This document shows positions 33-7,140 of a stretch of DNA of 7,140 nt, in pieces. The DNA is from Escherichia coli. GTDB lineage: Bacteria > Pseudomonadota > Gammaproteobacteria > Enterobacterales > Enterobacteriaceae. Each line of letters opens with the position of its first letter. The first letter of the stretch is position 1. A program made the position numbers and the translations under genes. The notes below the pieces were generated by a model that did not search any database, was not told the DNA's origin, and was given only the letters and a program-made list of their open reading frames with translations. The stretch lies in NCBI RefSeq assembly GCF_003334335.1, contig NZ_QOWQ01000073.1; one strand, given 5' to 3'.

Positions 33-775
33 CCATTTTTACTGTAAAACCGTGGCCAATATTACTTGACCACTACAAGTTAGCTGAGATGTTAAGCTGC
101 TGGCTGCATACACCTTGCCAAATCTAATCGCTGTTATCTTAACCAATTTCCAGGATACAAGGGGGCGATTACTGAGAATGCTCTCAGACTGTCACTCACC
201 AGATCGGATACGTTTACTGCTCAGGCGGATGCTTAATGCACTCTGTTCAGGTGCATTGCAGGTACGTTTTATGTACGCAGGTTATACGCCAGTTATCAGG
301 GATAACCCTGTGAGTACAACGCAATCTGTTGCTACTGGGTAGACTGGTCTGCTGATCACACTCACAGATTTATTTCACATATATGAACTCATGTGTTTGA
401 GCTCTCTTATATATTTATAATACCAATCAGACAGTCTTATCCCACCAGTGATACCTGTCGCCTGCCCACAGGTCACGGGCTGATGCACCACAACCGCCTT
501 CAAAAACAACTCTGCAATTATCAGAACGCCAGTTTTCCCCTTGTCTCACGAAAGTCCTCCCTCCTTTATCACGTGCGCGTGCGGAAGCATCGTTTCGCAA
601 CAATCACCCGACATACCGGTACGGCTCAGCCACCGCAATCCCCCCGTTTATCTCCTGACGGTTACATTCCCGATTATTTTTTACGTTTTTCCCCGGTTGT
701 TATGCCGGGGAAGGTGGTGCGTTGTTTTCATCACCAACGCCGGTTGAGATTAACAACATCCGGAGGAACATTTTC

Positions 776-982
776 ATGAATACCCCAGTTTCACTGATGG
801 ATGACCAGATGGTCGACATGTCGTTTATCACTCAGCTGACCGGCCTGACCGATAAATGGTTTTACAAGCTCATCAAGGATGGTGCCTTTCCTGCCCCCAT
901 CAAACTGGGCCGTAGCTCCCGATGGCTGAAAAGTGAAGTGGAAGCCTGGTTGCAGGCACGTATTACACAGTCCCGTCCGTAA
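776..982 (+). CDS. alpA: AlpA-family prophage/island transcriptional regulator (small HTH DNA-binding protein), 68 aa
   Basis: ORF in the 722..982 frame; I start it at the internal ATG 776 because GGAGG (762-766) sits 9 nt upstream. The translation MNTPVSLMDDQMVDMSFITQLTGLTDKWFYKLIKDGAFPAPIKLGRSSRWLKSEVEAWL has the AlpA-family pattern (HTH followed by G-R-x-x-RW-x-x-SEV/I-x-x-W) as I recall it. Size (~70 aa) fits. Confidence 0.85.
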   Translation: MNTPVSLMDDQMVDMSFITQLTGLTDKWFYKLIKDGAFPAPIKLGRSSRWLKSEVEAWLQARITQSRP

Positions 983-1067
983 TTCCTGACCGTTATCCGT
1001 TCAACCGCAGCAAAGGCATGATCCGGCCCCCGGAGGCATTTTGCTGCGCGCTAAAGGAGAGAATATT

Positions 1068-1640
1068 ATGCAAAAACTTGAAAACCGGTGTGAGCTGCTG
1101 CTCATCCAGCATCAGAAATGGATGACAAACGTGACGAGGCTTATCGTCGCTCATGGAATGGGGGCTCCGCATCTTCATGGTTATCACCGCCTGACCCTGG
1201 CCCACTTTTTTCTGCCAGAAAAAGGCACCATCATCTCAGTGGCACCACAGGGACTCTATCAGGTCGTCAACCCGGGAACACCACCGTTCATTCCTGCCAT
1301 TCAGGAAGGGTTAATGACCAGCATTCAGACCCATGAAATCATGCTGCTTACACATTTTAATCTGGGCGGCGTTTTACTCAGTGAGCTACATCGTCTGGGT
1401 GAAAACCGGCTGGCAAACAGGCTGAACAGCCTGCTCCGGCGTTTCAACGATCGTGATCTCTACCACACGCTGATATGGCTGTGCTGGTATGATCTGATGT
1501 GTGCTCACTCCATGCAGCCCTGGACTGAAGAGTTAAAGCATAAATCACATGCAGAGCTTGAAAACTGGGCTGTGGCGCGCAAACGGGAAAAGCGCGAGCT
1601 GGAACTGATGATTGACGAGTACCTGTTATACGCCTGTTGA
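1068..1640 (+). CDS. Hypothetical protein, 190 aa, function unknown (island-associated)
   Basis: Long ORF (track 1041..1640). I prefer ATG 1068 over the TTG at 1041 because AGGAGA (1054-1059) lies 8 nt upstream. Protein-like composition, no internal stops for 573 nt. I do not recognise the family from the sequence. Confidence 0.6.
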   Translation: MQKLENRCELLLIQHQKWMTNVTRLIVAHGMGAPHLHGYHRLTLAHFFLPEKGTIISVAPQGLYQVVNPGTPPFIPAIQEGLMTSIQTHEIMLLTHFNLGGVLLSELHRLGENRLANRLNSLLRRFNDRDLYHTLIWLCWYDLMCAHSMQPWTEELKHKSHAELENWAVARKREKRELELMIDEYLLYAC

Positions 1641-1679
1641 TTCATAACGCTCCCGGGCCTCCGCACACTTACTTTTCCT

Positions 1680-1711
1680 CCGTCACCCTCATGCAGAAGC
1701 GGGGGTGACGG
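1680..1711. other. GC-rich hairpin between convergent genes (9-bp stem CCGTCACCC / GGGTGACGG, 14-nt loop); no clear U-tract on either strand
   Basis: Inverted repeat read directly: 1680-1688 pairs with 1703-1711. It lies in the 120-bp gap between the stop of the + strand ORF (1640) and the stop of the - strand ORF (1761). No T-run follows on either strand, so it is not a canonical intrinsic terminator. Confidence 0.3.
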
Positions 1712-1760
1712 GCATACTGCGATACCACCACTGAATAATCCGTCTCAGCAACAGGGAACA

Positions 1761-3251
1761 TTATAAGCCAAAGGATTGCTCATGCCATCTTATCAGTTTC
1801 TGGCTGTAGCACGCATTCAGTTCAGGCAGCGTGATATTGTTTATTTCGGAAAGCAGGACATAGGTGGTTTTTCCTTCCTGCACGACAGAGAGCCTGAGTT
1901 GAGATGCAAGAATGTTCAGCAGGACGTTCAGCTTTTTCCTGTTCCGGAACCGGCCCGGGCCACACTGGAGAATATAATTTTTCCTGACACGGGGCGGGCA
2001 TTCTCCGCGGCACTCCTCAATGAGCCAGTCGAGCAGCTCCCGGGCGTCCTGCAGCTGCAGTTCAGATTCGTCAGGTAACGCAAATAATTTTTTATATTCA
2101 TCTGTGTACCACGAACTTATTACGACAGCAGACGTCATGATATCGGCAGAGATTTTCCCTTCACCCTGACTGAAATACTGCAATAACGCAGCAATTCTCG
2201 CAATGTTTTCTGTTTTTTTTGAAACATGCCCCCGAAACTGGCTTAAGGGTCCGGAAGGAGACAAATCCTGCTCCAGAACATTATAGTGATCAATAAATAT
2301 TTTTTGCGCTTCAGGAGAAAAATGCAGACAATAACGTTCATCCTTACTGGATTTTTCAATACTGCCTCTGGCCAGTTCCATTAATCGTTCATGAAATGCC
2401 GTTAATGATCCTCCCGGGGTCACAGCTCCGTTAATAAAGCGTTTCCCCTGCGTGGTGGCAGGTTTACTGATTAGACAACGGGCAAGAAAACCACTGTCCC
2501 TGGCAACAGAACCTTTTCGCTCCATATATCGGTCAAAAAGACCGGGTTGTACCATGAGGGATAATGTCATTCTAGCATTTTCAATCATCTGTTCGGGTTC
2601 ATTCTTTCTGTCCACCGACAATACGGAGCCATCCCACATTTTGTTAATAAAAGGCAGCTCAGACAGGGTATACCCATCAAATATTATACCGGCTTCATCA
2701 GACATGATACCCACTGAACGCCACTGACCACAAAGCTGATCTTTAATTGCTGCTGTCGTGGCATCATTAAAAATGAATTTATATCTTACAGGTTTTTCCC
2801 CTCTGTTTTTCTGAAGCGCTTCCAGTTGTCTGAGCGTTTCTGACTCATCCGCGCCTTTGCGGAGTTCTTTATTCAGTTTTGACAACAATGCTTTTTTCTG
2901 CGCCTTTAAAAGCTCTTCCTTATTTTTCCATATCGTCAGTTCATTTTTGTGTCTGGAATATAACAGCATCTCCTGCTGGTACAGGGGCTCCATTAATAAT
3001 TTGTCCACTGCGGTTTTTCGTTCTCCGGACTCAGCAAGCGTCAGTAAGAAAAGAGAAACCGGCCCCCGCAGTGTATTCAGTCTGCAGACATCAATCAGAT
3101 TCTGGCAGACAAGTGAAACAGCGCCCAGGGCAGATGCTGCCACAAGCCCCAGGGGAGCCTGCGTGATTTGCTGAGCTTCAATAACGGCATCACGAATGAG
3201 TGGAGGCAGCGAGCTCAGGGGAAACTCATCAGGATACTGAAAGTATGGCAT
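1761..3251 (-). CDS. YfjI-like DUF3987-domain protein (mobile-element associated, possibly replication-related), 496 aa
   Basis: Minus-strand ORF 1761..3269. I start it at the ATG at 3251 (MPYFQYPDEF...) because a GAGGT Shine-Dalgarno sits 5 nt upstream on the minus strand. The N-terminal region (FPLSSLPPLIRDAVIEAQQITQAPLGLVAASALGAVSLVCQNLIDV) resembles DUF3987/YfjI proteins as I recall them. The many short ORFs overlapping it are antisense or alternate-frame artefacts. Confidence 0.8.
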   Translation of the reverse strand: MPYFQYPDEFPLSSLPPLIRDAVIEAQQITQAPLGLVAASALGAVSLVCQNLIDVCRLNTLRGPVSLFLLTLAESGERKTAVDKLLMEPLYQQEMLLYSRHKNELTIWKNKEELLKAQKKALLSKLNKELRKGADESETLRQLEALQKNRGEKPVRYKFIFNDATTAAIKDQLCGQWRSVGIMSDEAGIIFDGYTLSELPFINKMWDGSVLSVDRKNEPEQMIENARMTLSLMVQPGLFDRYMERKGSVARDSGFLARCLISKPATTQGKRFINGAVTPGGSLTAFHERLMELARGSIEKSSKDERYCLHFSPEAQKIFIDHYNVLEQDLSPSGPLSQFRGHVSKKTENIARIAALLQYFSQGEGKISADIMTSAVVISSWYTDEYKKLFALPDESELQLQDARELLDWLIEECRGECPPRVRKNYILQCGPGRFRNRKKLNVLLNILASQLRLSVVQEGKTTYVLLSEINNITLPELNACYSQKLIRWHEQSFGL

Positions 3252-4084
3252 AATGACCTCACAACACACAGAACATAAAGTACCGCAACTATTGCTACTA
3301 ATAGCAAAAATAGCAGCAGAATCAATACAGGATAAAAATTTCTGTCGATTTTCAGATTAAATAATAACCATTCGGTATTTTGTCGCTAAAGAATGTTAGA
3401 ATGAATCTGTGCGTCTACGGGCGCTCTCCGGAACACACATGTTGATTAATTTTCACACAACAACGTACCAGCAAAAAGCATCATCCAGGGTATTGCAGGT
3501 ACGGGTTTCCTGCCGGGAATAAACATAAACAGTTTCCCCGGAGTAACGCTTTCAGAAAACTGCCCTCCTGAAGAAGAATAAAATAAAGAAGATGACAGTT
3601 CCTGCACTGAATGCTGAGTACAATATTCTATGGACAGGATGACATTTTTATAAATAACAAAAACCATTTAATACTGATACATCAATAAAATACTTCCTCC
3701 CTGCTGACACAGATAAAATGCAACATTTTTTCTTCAAATACTTCTGTATAATCGCCAGCCAATGATGAGAATGGATTAAAATAACACTTCTTCGACAAAC
3801 ACAAAAACCAGCCTTCATTTTCACATCATCATCCAGTTTTAATTAAACCCTGACGAGCGACAGTATTTCAGTTCAGGAATTAAAAGCCAGCTATTACTCA
3901 GTAAAAACACCACCAACTAATAATATCTCAGCAGATATTTCCTGACCAGGATGACACATTTATTAAAGATTTTTAACAGGACACTTCACATTACTGAACG
4001 CTATTCCGACAGTATCACTACACAAATAAAAAAGGGAACTGGATAAATATTCATGCCGGAAGAATGGTGTAACAAAAGCATTTA

Positions 4085-4221
4085 ATCATTACGTGCGTAT
4101 TCCTCTCTATTCGATCACGGTTTGGCCAAACCGTGATCGATTCAGATGCCATTTTGCAAGTACGCATGACCCGGAAGGGAAACACTTAACAACATGGTAT
4201 CAACAGATATCATTACGTGCG
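4085..4221. repeat. 13-bp perfect direct repeat ATCATTACGTGCG (4085-4097 and 4209-4221) bracketing the 30-bp palindrome
   Basis: Read directly. Both copies are identical over 13 bp with similar T/C-rich tails (TATTCCTCTCTAT vs CACTCTTAT). They are 124 bp apart. Confidence 0.85.
4111..4140. repeat. 30-bp perfect palindrome TCGATCACGGTTTGGCCAAACCGTGATCGA with two symmetric GATC sites (candidate operator or RNA hairpin)
   Basis: The sequence equals its own reverse complement over exactly 30 bp (checked base by base); it does not extend, since 4110 and 4141 are T and T. GATC at 4113-4116 and 4135-4138 are the only GATC sites in the 3270-4540 spacer. Confidence 0.9.
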
Positions 4222-4357
4222 CACTCTTATAAAAATACACAGCAGAAGCAAGATAACTCTAAACGTAAATTTAATATCTCCCACTGACTGCCCCGACAAT
4301 ATACTGAAAAATACTCACCTCAGTAAACATAAACACACCTGATAATCAGGCTGCAAG

Positions 4358-4441
4358 ATGAATATTTTTCTCCTTTACGGAGTAATCAGCCTGCTGTTTA
4401 ACAATAACCGCGTATTTTCATGGAAGGATATCACCCAATAA
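4358..4441 (+). CDS. Candidate small ORF, 27 aa (MNIFLLYGVISLLFNNNRVFSWKDITQ); possible leader peptide or small hydrophobic protein
   Basis: ATG at 4358 to TAA at 4439-4441, verified codon by codon. Hydrophobic N-terminal half. A weak AGG lies 7 nt upstream and a 13-bp palindrome CCTGATAATCAGG (4338-4350) sits just before the start. A terminator-like hairpin follows about 85 nt downstream. The ORF is too short for statistical support. Confidence 0.15.
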   Translation: MNIFLLYGVISLLFNNNRVFSWKDITQ

Positions 4442-4527
4442 CGGATAACTCCTGCCCTCCTTCATGTTAATACGCAACATCCCCATCGATTCCAAACAAT
4501 TTCAGACAGATATTATCTCCGTGAATC

Positions 4528-4566
4528 CCCCGCCACCTTTCCGGTGTGCGGGGTTTTGTCTTTTTT
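4528..4566 (+). terminator. Intrinsic (rho-independent) terminator-like hairpin plus U-tract, immediately upstream of the GTPase start codon
   Basis: GC-rich stem 4528-4537 (CCCCGCCACC) pairing with 4543-4553 (GGTGTGCGGGG) with one bulged T and a 5-nt loop TTTCC, followed by TTTTGTCTTTTTT (4554-4566). The GTPase ATG is at 4583. Confidence 0.6.
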
Positions 4567-4582
4567 CACCGGGAATACATGT

Positions 4583-5455
4583 ATGAATCCGTCTGATGCC
4601 ATTGAGGCAATTGAAAAACCACTTTCTTCCCTGCCTTACTCGCTTTCCCGTCACATCCTGGAACATCTGCGCAAACTCACCAGTCACGAACCCGTGATTG
4701 GCATTATGGGTAAAAGCGGGGCCGGTAAATCCTCACTCTGTAATGCACTGTTTCAGGGGGAGGTCACCCCGGTCAGTGATGTTCACGCCGGCACCCGGGA
4801 AGTGCGGCGCTTCCGTCTGAGTGGCCACGGTCACAGCATGGTTATCACTGACCTGCCCGGGGTGGGCGAGAGCCGGGACAGGGATGCAGAGTATGAAGCC
4901 CTGTACCGTGACATTCTGCCTGAACTGGACCTGGTGCTGTGGCTGATTAAAGCCGATGACCGGGCCCTGTCTGTGGATGAGTATTTCTGGCGACACATCC
5001 TGCAGTGCGGACATCAGCAGGTGCTGTTTGTGGTGACACAGGCCGACAAAACGGAGCCCTGCCATGAATGGGATATGGCCGGCATTCAGCCCTCTCCCGC
5101 ACAGGCACAGAACATTCGCGAAAAAACGGAGGCGGTATTCCGTCTGTTCCGGCCTGTACATCCGGTTGTGGCCGTATCGGCCCGCACCGGCTGGGAACTG
5201 GATACGCTGGTCAGTGCGCTCATGACAGCGCTTCCCGACCATGCCGCCAGTCCCCTGATGACCCGCCTGCAGGACGAGCTGCGCACGGAATCTGTCCGCG
5301 CTCAGGCCCGTGAGCAGTTTACCGGTGCGGTGGACCGGATATTTGACACAGCGGAGAGCGTCTGTGTTGCCTCTGTTGCACGCACGGTTCTGCGTGCCGT
5401 CCGTGACACAGTGGTCTCTGTTGCCCGCGCGGTATGGAACTGGATCTTCTTCTGA
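4583..5455 (+). CDS. yeeP: YeeP/YfjP/YkfA-family GTPase of cryptic prophages/islands (ribosome-binding GTPase-like), 290 aa, apparently intact
   Basis: ORF 4544..5455. Start set at ATG 4583 (MNPSDAIEAIEKPL...) with a weak GGGAA 7 nt upstream; GTG 4544 is an alternative. P-loop GKSGAGKSS (G1), DLPGVGE (G3, DxxG) and TQADK (G4-like) are present. Its position directly upstream of the Ag43 gene matches the yeeP-flu arrangement in E. coli K-12 as I recall it. Confidence 0.85.
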   Translation: MNPSDAIEAIEKPLSSLPYSLSRHILEHLRKLTSHEPVIGIMGKSGAGKSSLCNALFQGEVTPVSDVHAGTREVRRFRLSGHGHSMVITDLPGVGESRDRDAEYEALYRDILPELDLVLWLIKADDRALSVDEYFWRHILQCGHQQVLFVVTQADKTEPCHEWDMAGIQPSPAQAQNIREKTEAVFRLFRPVHPVVAVSARTGWELDTLVSALMTALPDHAASPLMTRLQDELRTESVRAQAREQFTGAVDRIFDTAESVCVASVARTVLRAVRDTVVSVARAVWNWIFF

Positions 5456-5555: not shown

Positions 5556-5560
5556 AAAAC

Positions 5561-5596
5561 GATCGATACCTATTTTATCGATCGTTAATATCGATC
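5561..5596. promoter_or_regulatory. Ag43 phase-variation switch: three clustered Dam GATC sites (5561-5564, 5580-5583, 5593-5596) within the presumed OxyR binding region
   Basis: Sequence CGATCGATACCTATTTTATCGATCGTTAATATCGATCGTT read directly, about 190-230 bp upstream of the Ag43 start codon. Three GATC sites inside the OxyR operator are the established hallmark of the agn43 Dam/OxyR epigenetic ON/OFF switch. Confidence 0.8.
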
Positions 5597-5760
5597 GTTA
5601 TGCTAATAATAACTCCTGTTAGCAACGTGCACAGATACACACAGACATGAGATTCAGGGAACAACAGAGCCACACGTCAGAAACTTCCGTCAGCCGGACC
5701 TCCGGCACTGTAACCCTTTACCTGCCGGTATCCACATCTGTGGATACCGGCTTTTTTATT
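5562..5760 (+). ncRNA. isrC: agn43 5' leader / IsrC-like small RNA (promoter-proximal transcript ending at the leader terminator)
   Basis: Inferred: a transcript starting near 5562 from the candidate promoter would end at the strong terminator at 5724-5760, giving a product of about 200 nt. In E. coli K-12 the sRNA IsrC is annotated between yeeP and flu, as I recall. The ends are not determined from sequence. Confidence 0.4.
5724..5760 (+). terminator. Intrinsic terminator in the agn43 leader (12-bp perfect stem, 4-nt loop, T-run)
   Basis: GCCGGTATCCAC (5724-5735) pairs perfectly with GTGGATACCGGC (5740-5751), loop ATCT, followed by TTTTTTATT (5752-5760). It lies 29 nt upstream of the Ag43 ATG. 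Confidence 0.75.
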
Positions 5761-5788
5761 CACCCTCACTCTGATTAAGGAAATGCTG

Positions 5789-7140
5789 ATGAAACGACAT
5801 CTGAATACCTGCTACAGGCTGGTATGGAATCACATTACGGGCGCTTTCGTGGTTGCCTCCGAACTGGCCCGCGCACGGGGTAAACGTGGCGGTGTGGCGG
5901 TTGCACTGTCTCTTGCCGCGGTCACGTCACTCCCGGTGCTGGCTGCTGACATCGTTGTGCACCCGGGTGAAACAGTGAATGGCGGAACACTGGTAAACCA
6001 TGACAACCAGTTTGTATCCGGAACAGCTGATGGCGTGACTGTCAGTACCGGGCTTGAGCTGGGGCCGGACAGTGACGAAAACACCGGCGGGCAATGGATA
6101 AAAGCGGGTGGCACAGGCAGAAACACCACTGTCACCGCAAATGGTCGTCAGATTGTGCAGGCAGGAGGAACTGCCAGTGATACGGTTATTCGTGATGGCG
6201 GAGGGCAGAGCCTTAACGGACTGGCGGTGAACACCACGCTGGATAACAGAGGTGAGCAGTGGGTACACGGGGGAGGGAAAGCTGCCGGTACAATTATTAA
6301 CCAGGATGGTTACCAGACCATAAAACATGGCGGACTGGCAACCGGAACCATCGTCAACACCGGTGCAGAAGGTGGTCCGGAGTCTGAAAATGTGTCCAGC
6401 GGTCAGATGGTCGGAGGGACGGCTGAATCCACCACCATCAACAAAAATGGCCGGCAGGTTATCTGGTCTTCGGGGATGGCACGGGACACCCTCATTTACG
6501 CCGGTGGTGACCAGACGGTACACGGAGAGGCACATAACACCCGGCTGGAGGGGGGTAACCAGTATGTACACAACGGTGGCACGGCAACAGAGACGCTGAT
6601 AAACCGTGATGGCTGGCAGGTGATTAAGGAAGGAGGAACTGCCGCGCATACCACCATCAACCAGAAAGGAAAGCTGCAGGTGAATGCCGGCGGTAAAGCG
6701 TCTGATGTCACCCAGAACACGGGCGGTGCACTGGTTACCAGTACAGCTGCAACCGTCACCGGCACAAACCGCCTGGGAGCATTCTCCGTTGTGGCGGGTA
6801 AGGCTGATAATGTCGTACTGGAAAATGGCGGACGTCTGGATGTGCTGAGCGGACACACAGCCACTAATACCCGCGTGGATGATGGCGGAACGCTGGATGT
6901 CCGCAATGGTGGTACCGCTACCACCGTATCCATGGGGAATGGCGGGGTACTGCTGGCCGATTCCGGGGCCGCTGTCAGTGGTACCCGGAGCGACGGAACG
7001 GCATTCCGTATCGGAGGCGGTCAGGCGGATGCCCTGATGCTGGAAAAAGGCAGTTCCTTCACACTGAACGCCGGTGATACGGCCACGGATACCACGGTAA
7101 ATGGCGGACTGTTCACCGCCAGGGGCGGCACACTGGCGGG
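5789..7140 (+). CDS. flu: Antigen 43 (Ag43) self-associating autotransporter adhesin, 5' part (signal peptide plus passenger beta-helix); runs off the window end
   Basis: ATG 5789 with AAGGA (5777-5781) 7 nt upstream. Translation begins MKRHLNTCYRLVWNHITGAFVVASELARARGKRGGVAVALSLAAVTSLPVLAADIVVHPGETVNGG..., matching the Ag43 N-terminus including the extended autotransporter signal peptide. The frame is open to 7140 and shows the ~19-residue Gly/Thr/Asn-rich repeats typical of the passenger domain. Confidence 0.9.
   Translation, partial: MKRHLNTCYRLVWNHITGAFVVASELARARGKRGGVAVALSLAAVTSLPVLAADIVVHPGETVNGGTLVNHDNQFVSGTADGVTVSTGLELGPDSDENTGGQWIKAGGTGRNTTVTANGRQIVQAGGTASDTVIRDGGGQSLNGLAVNTTLDNRGEQWVHGGGKAAGTIINQDGYQTIKHGGLATGTIVNTGAEGGPESENVSSGQMVGGTAESTTINKNGRQVIWSSGMARDTLIYAGGDQTVHGEAHNTRLEGGNQYVHNGGTATETLINRDGWQVIKEGGTAAHTTINQKGKLQVNAGGKASDVTQNTGGALVTSTAATVTGTNRLGAFSVVAGKADNVVLENGGRLDVLSGHTATNTRVDDGGTLDVRNGGTATTVSMGNGGVLLADSGAAVSGTRSDGTAFRIGGGQADALMLEKGSSFTLNAGDTATDTTVNGGLFTARGGTLA
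6100..7140 (+). repeat. Degenerate ~57-bp (19-20 codon) periodic repeats encoding the Ag43 passenger beta-helix rungs
   Basis: Recurring units such as AGGTASDTVIRDGGGQSL / GGGKAAGTIINQDGYQTIK / NGGTATETLINRDGWQVIKEGGTAAHTTINQKG at roughly 19-20 residue spacing in the translation. These explain the long spurious antisense ORFs in this stretch. Confidence 0.7.

Follow-up and report, generated by a model that had tools for sequence, protein, structure and literature searches.

Downstream of an AlpA-family regulator gene in an Escherichia coli island, a gene for an uncharacterised protein of 190 amino acids (aa) converges on an inverted gene of the YfjI family (DUF3987). Does this pair form an accessory cargo module, or is it part of the backbone of the island? 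A preliminary description of the locus took the former view, contrasting the layout with that of the CP4-57 element, in which alpA, yfjI and yfjJ are co-directional (as they indeed are in K-12), and regarding the pair as a rearranged candidate cargo module with, for example, a role in replication/partition or defence against phage. From the neighbourhoods, homologues and predicted structure of the genes in the window (the whole stretch of 7,140 nucleotides that was analysed), we consider it probable that the region represents the usual backbone, for regulation and replication, of an E. coli island that is CP4-44-type, tRNA-associated and Ag43-carrying, with the 190-aa gene as a constant partner of the AlpA regulator.

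Organization of the locus

The window contains the following features:

776-982, + strand: AlpA-family helix-turn-helix gene, 68 aa, matching Pfam Phage_AlpA
1006-1048, + strand: two-tier hairpin in the intergenic region between alpA and the 190-aa gene, its 3' end 19 nt ahead of the ATG
1048-1841, no strand: variable cassette, where homology with the other allele type in E. coli is interrupted at the DNA level
1055-1059, + strand: Shine-Dalgarno sequence AGGAG of the 190-aa gene, seen by direct reading, 8 nt ahead of the start codon at 1068
1068-1640, + strand: 190-aa open reading frame (ORF), uncharacterised Aec62-like family
1641-1760, no strand: convergent intergenic region with a GC-rich inverted repeat at ~1680-1711
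1761-3251, - strand: YfjI-family DUF3987 gene, 496 aa, helicase-type P-loop ATPase (Pfam PF13148)
3252-4582, no strand: AT-rich spacer of 1,331 bp between the divergent yfjI and GTPase genes
4583-5455, + strand: YeeP/YfjP-like GTPase gene, island backbone (Era/MnmE/Der matches)
From 5789: agn43, downstream of the GTPase gene

The elements named in the preliminary description (the 190-aa ORF, the inverted DUF3987 gene and a spacer of ~1.3 kb) were thus all located, and transcription of the DUF3987 gene is directed away from the spacer, as had been proposed. The 190-aa gene and yfjI are separated by a gap of 120 bp, in which a stem (CGUCACCC/GGGUGACG) is seen in folds of both strands; this gap was considered as a bidirectional intrinsic terminator and rejected, as the hairpin has no U-tract and is no more stable than shuffled controls (z ~ -1.2). 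The spacer (GC 34-41%) is ~90% conserved in comparison with locus L002, a second E. coli island carrying a different allele of the small gene, contains no annotated gene in the identical RefSeq record and has no Rfam match. A replication origin adjoining yfjI was also sought in the spacer, where no iterons, tandem repeats or ori-like repeats were found. The GTPase gene, annotated 'GTPase family protein', has domain-level matches to the Era, MnmE and Der GTPases. Neither the window nor the surrounding 20 kb in locus L001 contains an integrase or packaging gene.

The convergent layout is common among E. coli islands

The convergent order (alpA and the 190-aa gene in one direction, yfjI in the other) is found in 796 of 5,426 complete E. 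coli genomes, and a further 1,152 have the same layout with a 36%-identical, Aec62-type allele of the small gene (both counted at ≥80% coverage), as against only 384 genomes with the CP4-57 order, many of them K-12 laboratory derivatives. Because the order in the window is the common, conserved one among related islands, the earlier conclusion that it represents rearranged cargo is wrong. The window proteins are also distant from those of K-12, AlpA being 25% identical to its K-12 counterpart and YfjI 52% identical over its full length; the window therefore represents a different island lineage, not a rearranged CP4-57.

An annotated island (NZ_CP042892.1, strain NMBU-W12E19) is 100% identical to the window and extends it on both sides. 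Upstream, genes for a Zn-ribbon protein and a Gp2/YfjJ-like protein, both on the minus strand, precede alpA, the small gene (annotated as hypothetical) and the inverted yfjI; downstream, the GTPase gene and agn43 are followed by genes encoding DUF932, antirestriction, JAB/RadC and CbeA/CbtA proteins. Loci L002 and L003 have the same gene order as the window, and the colinear series of alpA, small gene, reversed yfjI, spacer, GTPase gene and agn43 is that of the CP4-44-type Ag43 backbone. Islands with the small gene are carried by more than one third of E. coli genomes, including clinically important lineages, with CFT073 and ST131 strains among the matches.

An uncharacterised protein family restricted to Enterobacterales

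The 190-aa ORF is a genuine gene. It has full-length, gap-free homologues at 36-39% identity, among them the Aec62-type allele (36% identity over 183 residues, no gaps, E = 6e-41), its dN/dS ratio against close alleles is ~0.22 (from small counts), and AlphaFold2, given 14 sequences, yields a confident model (pLDDT 88, pTM 0.87); together these rule out a chance ORF. An A/GGGA motif is conserved at the Shine-Dalgarno position in a 17-sequence alignment. In the predicted fold of this protein, which is soluble and cytoplasmic, a long N-terminal helix and a beta hairpin precede a variable linker, after which a bundle of six helices makes up the C-terminal part.

The description of this protein as lacking a recognised family holds. 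Pfam yielded no match with the single sequence or with any of the 14 members of the alignment, NCBIfam, PHROG and PADLOC were equally blank, and a profile search against PDB sequences returned nothing better than E 0.4. The structure-based search that had been suggested for it gave only members of its own family in AFDB50 (Foldseek TM 0.86-0.94) and, among viral structures, no match with E < 1, so that no well-characterised family with a mundane role came to light. Some of these AFDB50 entries are labelled 'Secretoglobin family protein' or 'Malate transporter', labels that none of the profiles used here supports.

An exhaustive profile search recovered only 122 cluster representatives, all within the Enterobacterales and named in databases 'Aec62' or 'hypothetical'; the family is essentially absent from phages and true plasmids. 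Two motifs, G[VI]L[LI]SE.xRL and LxxLCW, are invariant in the family and present in the 190-aa protein; a putative conserved surface includes S105, E106 and R109 together with C139 and W140. Hidden paralogues were sought among unannotated neighbouring genes using hhalign, with probabilities below 1% for each of the proteins compared (UCP030791 in L010, a 176-aa protein in L006 and a 192-aa, YagK/YfjJ-like protein in L031). A search of the literature on Aec62, YfjI and DUF3987 brought up no work on the function of the small protein.

The 190-aa gene is a companion of alpA

The AlpA protein of the window matches Pfam Phage_AlpA (PF05930, E = 6.3e-9, model positions 4-51 of 51), HTH_17 (6.7e-7) and a PHROG family annotated 'excisionase and transcriptional regulator'. 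Using a 6-sequence alignment, we identified 29 loci with a gene of the 190-aa family in Enterobacterales other than E. coli. An alpA homologue (65-96% identity) lies directly upstream on the same strand in 28 of them, the sole exception being a locus cut by a contig end, and the spacing between the two genes is ~85-110 bp. Divergent members of the Aec62-like family likewise follow alpA; in one Yersinia group (P0099), no alpA gene is called beside the small gene. Nineteen of the 29 loci also contain a homologue of the GTPase gene, placed upstream of alpA in the opposite orientation. The place of the 190-aa gene behind alpA in 28 of these 29 loci shows that it is not optional cargo; it is the backbone partner of one AlpA clade, with which it forms a fixed two-gene unit.

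YfjI shows no such linkage. The protein matches PF13148 (E = 2.5e-94, model positions 1-363 of 364) and phrog_2373, 'DNA helicase' (3e-81); its 496 aa are counted from an ATG with a GAGG Shine-Dalgarno sequence, and an upstream GTG at 3269 gives 502 aa. A Walker A-like AESGERKT (a deviant P-loop, with R for the second G) and a Walker B-like GIMSDE are both conserved in K-12 YfjI, and Walker A and B motifs have been described for the DUF3987 family (PMC11724360). Pfam shows DUF3987 alone, with no PriCT or primase domain, and scans of four window proteins gave no primase domain or match. YfjI is a predicted stand-alone DUF3987 helicase-type ATPase and a unit separate from the 190-aa gene; it probably belongs to the replication genes of the island, along with the minus-strand gene, upstream of the window, for a YagK/YfjJ Gp2-like Rep-type protein. 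Its absence from many related islands shows it to be dispensable.

These neighbourhoods bear directly on the proposal that the 190-aa gene and the inverted DUF3987 gene constitute a single accessory module, for replication/partition or against phage, created by local rearrangement. The 190-aa gene and yfjI stand side by side in ~1,900 E. coli genome matches, DUF3987 proteins are known as helicases of mobile-element replication modules (PMC11724360), and replacement of small-gene alleles reaches into the 3' tail of yfjI, all of which would suit such a module. Against it, DUF3987 is found within 6 kb of the small gene in none of the 29 loci from other species, which, taken with the alpA linkage in 28 of them, means that the 190-aa gene and yfjI are not a module; E. 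coli islands without YfjI (L004, L048, L049) still have alpA and the small gene, and the layout is that of the majority, with no rearrangement. The final 25-27 codons of yfjI are wholly different between the two allele types, and K-12 YfjI stops ~3 residues beyond the point at which the tails diverge; the tails are unconserved read-through. The repeats expected of an origin are absent beside yfjI, as noted above, and neither protein matches any family in PADLOC-DB 2.0 at E ≤ 0.1, which also tells against the anti-phage option. The single-module proposal is already largely refuted by the neighbourhood data, and we give it very little credence.

A role of the small protein as an accessory factor in island replication, for example as a loader or origin-recognition partner acting in concert with the YagK/YfjJ Gp2-like Rep-type protein (and with YfjI in islands that have it), is likewise improbable, if marginally less so. 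The gene order does offer points in its favour: in other species, the gene most often found immediately after the small gene is YagK/YfjJ-like (11 loci), while elsewhere such a gene lies just upstream of alpA, and in CP4-57 it is YfjI that fills the slot between alpA and yfjJ held elsewhere by the small gene.

A hairpin between alpA and the 190-aa gene

The hairpin between the two cistrons is conserved among relatives and has no U-tract. RNAalifold recovered only a 5-bp inner stem from the alignment of this intergenic region; the register of the outer stem differs between lineages, so that it cannot be aligned for counting covariation. The inner palindrome, which is conserved, might just as well be a site at which a protein binds DNA. 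A simple scan, which could miss promoters, detected no promoter-like site on the + strand between alpA and the 190-aa gene. Given the lack of a detectable promoter of its own, the shared strand and the hairpin between the cistrons, the 190-aa gene is most likely co-transcribed with alpA.

Taken together, this organization suggests a model in which alpA and the 190-aa gene would be read as one transcript, the latter with its own strong Shine-Dalgarno sequence, and the hairpin would set the amount of transcript that reaches, or survives into, the second cistron; YfjI would be transcribed leftwards from the AT-rich spacer, as a separate replication-type unit. On this basis we tentatively propose that the 190-aa protein might act in the AlpA-controlled switch of the element, for instance by partnering or modulating AlpA during excision or induction, rather than benefit the host.

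The small gene is exchanged as a cassette

In comparison with L002, the window shows DNA homology at 84% over positions 181-1047 and at 90% over 1842-4093, and between 1047 and 1842 only a 105-bp relic of homology. The breakpoints are sharp, falling at the ribosome-binding site of the small gene and within the 3' tail of yfjI. E. coli carries at least four alleles of the small gene, at 36-39% identity, between flanks that are 84-90% identical in DNA. The small protein has evolved much faster than AlpA (34-39% versus 65-80% identity in the same loci) and also faster than the GTPase. Duplication is seen at several loci: paralogues stand in tandem in L015 and near each other in L038, L028 has an incomplete second copy, and L002 retains the relic of one. 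Immediately downstream of the small gene, other species have Dnd, type I restriction-modification (R-M)/methyltransferase, HNH and VgrG genes. The small gene is thus swapped as a cassette, and it borders a site that holds defence cargo in other species.

Fast evolution and cassette exchange, as seen in these comparisons, appear to fit a gene of conflict or specificity at least as well as a housekeeping cofactor. The 190-aa protein could serve in anti-defence, in exclusion or in immunity specificity, with its gene under AlpA control at the margin of a cargo site and its alleles maintained by diversifying or frequency-dependent selection. The divergent alleles between conserved flanks, the sharp breakpoints, the duplicated copies, the rapid evolution and the downstream Dnd, R-M, HNH and VgrG genes all point in this direction, as does the presence of antirestriction and RadC-like genes on the same islands. 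Several observations nevertheless weigh against such a role: the protein has no PADLOC match and resembles no known protein or fold of defence or anti-defence, its dN/dS ratio reflects purifying, not positive, selection within an allele type, the family is all but missing from phages and true plasmids, and the position of the gene is fixed relative to alpA, not to cargo. We therefore regard a conflict gene as possible but rather doubtful, somewhat more so than participation in the AlpA switch.

The two ideas can also be combined, more speculatively still, by supposing that Aec62-like proteins are AlpA-coupled switch or specificity factors with a new fold, each allele either tuning the firing of the AlpA programme, the trigger of which could be a phage or host signal, or neutralising a different host defence. 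If correct, this would account at once for the coupling to alpA, the cassette swaps, the tandem duplication and the position at the edge of a defence-cargo hotspot.

While the convergent layout is simply the standard backbone of a very common type of E. coli island, already annotated in thousands of genomes, the lasting value of the analysis lies in the clear definition of an uncharacterised, Enterobacterales-only family with no detectable relative in sequence or fold, the function of which would inform our understanding of how widespread cryptic islands are controlled.

Comparison with known systems

The closest named relative of the 190-aa protein is Aec62 (UniProt, e.g. Q5K5T0), a member of the same family (35-37% identity, TM 0.86-0.91 to the model) that occupies the same slot after alpA but belongs to a different allele group; the 200-aa allele of L002 falls in the cluster containing an entry of this name. 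Aec62 itself is listed in a gene table of one paper (PMC6174562), and the name carries no functional assignment.

Window YfjI shares a DUF3987 domain with Walker A and B motifs with AgaPH, a PriCT-DUF3987 protein of a pAgo-carrying mobile element that is a demonstrated 5'-3' helicase and has been proposed to replicate its own element (PMC11724360). AgaPH differs in having an N-terminal PriCT domain and an adjacent primase-polymerase (PMC11724360), neither of which has a counterpart in the window. ATP-dependent unwinding of DNA in the 5'-3' direction is known from AgaPH alone. The combination of alpA with a DUF3987 gene recurs in the PICMI phage satellites, in which AlpA is the key activator and a DUF3987/DUF5906 'primase' serves replication (PMC10803314). 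In contrast to the window, however, these are small Vibrionaceae elements located at fis, with no Aec62-like gene in the published model (PMC10803314); the window gives no sign of helper-phage dependence or packaging.

AlpA of Pseudomonas aeruginosa, of the same Pfam family as window AlpA, is described in two reports as loading onto RNA polymerase, resulting in read-through of a downstream terminator hairpin (PMC7969949, PMC9371919). The setting described there is that of the alpBCDE lysis genes, whereas the hairpin in the window follows alpA itself and has no U-tract.

Among E. coli elements, the K-12 cryptic prophage CP4-57 (intA, yfjH, alpA, yfjI, yfjJ) shares with the island of the window an AlpA-family regulator, a YfjI DUF3987 protein, a YfjJ/Gp2-like protein, a YfjP-type GTPase, DUF932, antirestriction and RadC-like genes, and an arm with a CbtA-type toxin-antitoxin system. 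In CP4-57, alpA, yfjI and yfjJ run in one direction with no Aec62-like gene, whereas in the island of the window alpA is succeeded by the small gene, yfjI has the opposite orientation, and the yfjJ-like gene is a minus-strand gene farther upstream. In the CP4-44-type Ag43 islands (yeeP, flu/agn43, yeeR-yeeW, cbeA/cbtA), the right-hand arm (GTPase gene, IS102 RNA region, agn43, DUF932, antirestriction, JAB, DUF987 and CbeA/CbtA) is the same as that of the island of the window. The CP4-44 remnant of K-12 presumably lacks the left-hand part with alpA, the small gene and yfjI, which we take to be present in the full versions of wild strains.

Gene content of the window

The ORF map, the sequence and a 100%-identical RefSeq record (E. 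coli O10:H32 NMBU-W12E19) agree on all of the features listed below, and the preliminary description was right in every detail of genes and layout.

Features of the window
776-982, + strand: AlpA-family helix-turn-helix gene (Pfam Phage_AlpA, 6.3e-9)
1068-1640, + strand: 190-aa ORF (the 'small gene'), AGGAG 8 nt 5' of the ATG
120 bp: intergenic gap between the small gene and the YfjI gene
1761-3251, - strand: YfjI/DUF3987 gene (Pfam 2.5e-94, whole model; PHROG 'DNA helicase', 3e-81)
1,331 bp: spacer, GC 34-41%, annotation-free in the identical record
4583-5455, + strand: YeeP-like GTPase gene
5559-5764: IS102 RNA (full-length Rfam match, 255 bits), in the leader 5' of agn43
from 5789: agn43

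Inside the IS102 RNA match, at 5576-5600, lies the tandem TATCGATCGTTAA (1.9 copies, with GATC sites), which is probably the Ag43 phase-variation switch (Dam/OxyR). The region upstream of alpA (181-775) is long and non-coding, with ∼0.9 kb from an hha pseudogene to alpA in L001, the annotated island record of NMBU-W12E19. It is 84% conserved relative to the other island type and had no match in an Rfam search; it could be the site of the alpA operon promoter and regulatory sites.

The small gene defines an enterobacterial family

The 190-aa ORF is a real gene. Its homologues align over their full length without gaps at 36-39% identity, and its dN/dS against close alleles is ∼0.22, compared with 0.085-0.12 for alpA and 0.03-0.11 for the GTPase gene (few counts in each case). 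A confident AlphaFold model based on a 14-sequence alignment (pLDDT 88, pTM 0.87) comprises a long N-terminal helix, a beta hairpin, a linker (residues ∼68-89, variable and of low confidence) and a six-helix C-terminal bundle. The invariant positions of this ‘Aec62-like’ family fall in two helices, G[VI]L[LI]SE.xRL and LxxLCW. The family is small: among 1.84 billion cluster representatives, searched exhaustively by HMM, 122 belong to it, many of them fragmentary. Phage records and true plasmids contain essentially no members. Named members are Enterobacterales in every case (Escherichia, Citrobacter, Klebsiella, Enterobacter, Salmonella, Yersinia, Pectobacterium, Dickeya, Providencia, Proteus, Morganella, Photorhabdus and others). 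That the protein belongs to no recognised family, as first described, stands, and the value of the finding rests wholly on this orphan family.

The sole ‘phage’ record with a member (OR851001.1, ‘Salmonella phage S.Kent 1-2-1’, positions 1945-2472, 31% identity) is 3.6 kb long and unannotated, odd for a phage genome, and may represent an island fragment that was packaged or mis-assigned. Two metagenome-assembled genomes labelled Collinsella sp. (L019) and Bacillota bacterium (L036) carry Enterobacterales-typical island sequence, the L019 proteins being 96% identical to the alpA and small-gene products of the window; both are most likely mis-binned contigs.

The small gene is linked to alpA, not to yfjI

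Among 29 loci from different species, fetched by conserved family peptides, an alpA homologue (65-96% identity to the window AlpA) lies directly upstream of the small gene on the same strand in 28, usually after a gap of ∼100 bp, with a Zn-ribbon gene intervening in three; the remaining contig ends 198 bp upstream. Contigs of the most divergent members typically read YagK/YfjJ-like gene, alpA, zero to two Zn_ribbon_11 genes, family member, variable genes, and only a Yersinia group among them lacks a nearby alpA call. A YfjI homologue within 6 kb of the small gene was found in none of the 29 loci. Because E. coli islands devoid of YfjI (L004, L048, L049) retain both alpA and the small gene, the small gene is the backbone partner of AlpA, and YfjI is an independent, dispensable neighbour; the convergent pair, initially proposed to form one module, is not a unit.

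The arrangement is common in E. coli

The co-directional order alpA, yfjI, yfjJ initially stated for CP4-57 is correct for K-12. However, a single colinear megablast match to the window layout (700-3400, at least 80% of the query covered) occurs in 796 of 5,426 complete E. coli genomes, O25b:H4-ST131 strains among them, and the equivalent arrangement with a divergent, 200-aa Aec62-type allele (represented by the island locus L002) occurs in 1,152, sets that may overlap; the CP4-57 order occurs in 384, with K-12 laboratory strains predominating among the matches listed. The CP4-57 order is thus the minority, and the window layout is not unusual. AlpA and YfjI of the window are 25% and 52% identical, respectively, to their K-12 counterparts. 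The island is a separate lineage of the CP4-44/Ag43 type, flanked in L001 by Zn-ribbon and Gp2/YfjJ-like genes on the left and by DUF932, antirestriction, JAB/RadC and CbeA/CbtA genes on the right. Since this arrangement is the common, conserved one, the reading of a rearranged CP4-57 with an accessory cargo module is refuted on its own terms; thousands of genomes already carry an annotation of the locus.

Allele exchange, cargo and the role of the small gene

DNA homology between the window and L002 runs at 84% until position 1047, 21 nt 5' of the ATG, is then lost, and resumes (90%) at 1842, within the 3' end of yfjI. The last 25-27 yfjI codons (window 1761-1841) are unrelated between the two types; because K-12 YfjI stops ∼3 residues past the point of divergence, these tails seem to be unconstrained extensions of the ORF, reading into the cassette until a stop codon. 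A 105-bp relic of the window-type 3' end (74% identity) persists in L002 (7064-7168), behind the allele of that locus. Second Aec62-like copies occur as intact tandem paralogues (L015, 7273-7848 and 8001-8525), ∼2.5 kb further downstream (L038, 6001-6564 and 9088-9597) or as a partial copy (L028, 6679-6936). The simplest history has the gene duplicated in an ancestor, with copies then lost differentially and exchanged by recombination. In the same loci the small protein (34-39% identity) diverges much faster than its neighbours AlpA (65-80%) and the GTPase (45-61%).

In other species, genes downstream of the pair include DndB, DndC and DndD (L022, 7119-11834; cluster in three loci), a methyltransferase of type I R-M or MADS type (seven loci), complete type I R-M systems, an HNH protein, a VgrG/DUF4123 T6SS effector cluster or fimbrial genes. 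By a crude count of raw ORFs, those downstream are more diverse (105 clusters among 158 ORFs) than those upstream (75 among 170), and the pair therefore borders a site of often defence-related cargo, which looks like a hotspot, while the small gene stays fixed. Further cargo regions lie at L020:10220-11854 and L006:4596-7244, and in L015 and L016.

Cassette exchange, neighbouring or tandem paralogues and adjacent defence cargo favour the main alternative, an AlpA-controlled conflict or specificity gene that evolves fast; the protein has no PADLOC match and no fold similarity, however, and purifying selection acts within allele types, and we consider this alternative unlikely. The reading we favour is that the small gene is an AlpA-linked backbone gene, most likely acting in the island's own control; this placing in the island's organisation is probable, and a specific role as a partner of AlpA is proposed tentatively.

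A palindromic 66-bp segment of the spacer (4093-4158), containing a perfect 30-bp palindrome (4111-4140; TCGATCACGGTTTGG/CCAAACCGTGATCGA), is missing from the otherwise colinear L002 spacer. Across 2,668 E. coli genomes it recurs at 6,400 places, 660 of which are on plasmids, and a single genome has as many as 50; none is annotated. In its behaviour the segment resembles a miniature mobile or palindromic repeat element.

Comparison with known AlpA and DUF3987 systems

Between alpA and the small gene, no promoter-like site was found on the + strand, and a two-tier hairpin (1006-1048) is conserved in position and shape across ∼24 of 27 Enterobacterales loci, its outer stems being specific to each lineage. 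Formal covariation support is thin: the alignable part is limited to the nearly invariant inner stem (UCCGG/CCGGA), which contains one covarying pair. The hairpin matched no Rfam family, and the lack of a U-tract 3' of the stem sets it apart from canonical intrinsic terminators. It may work in the RNA, as an attenuator or stabiliser, or in the DNA, as an operator or palindromic binding site. The small gene would be co-transcribed with alpA, and the hairpin would modulate expression of this second cistron. Such a hairpin is of interest because a P. aeruginosa AlpA-family protein is known as a processive antiterminator (PMC7969949, PMC9371919), an analogy that proves nothing here.

Window YfjI contains Walker A-like (AESGERKT) and Walker B-like (GIMSDE) motifs, both also conserved in K-12 YfjI. 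DUF3987 proteins include a replication gene product of PICMI satellites (PMC10803314) and a PriCT-DUF3987 5'-3' helicase partnered with a primase-polymerase (PMC11724360). Unlike the latter, the window protein lacks PriCT and primase domains (Pfam) and has no primase gene nearby, and the spacer adjoining yfjI shows no iterons. This points to a helicase-like ATPase of the YfjI type that stands alone and probably belongs to the vestigial replication genes of the island.
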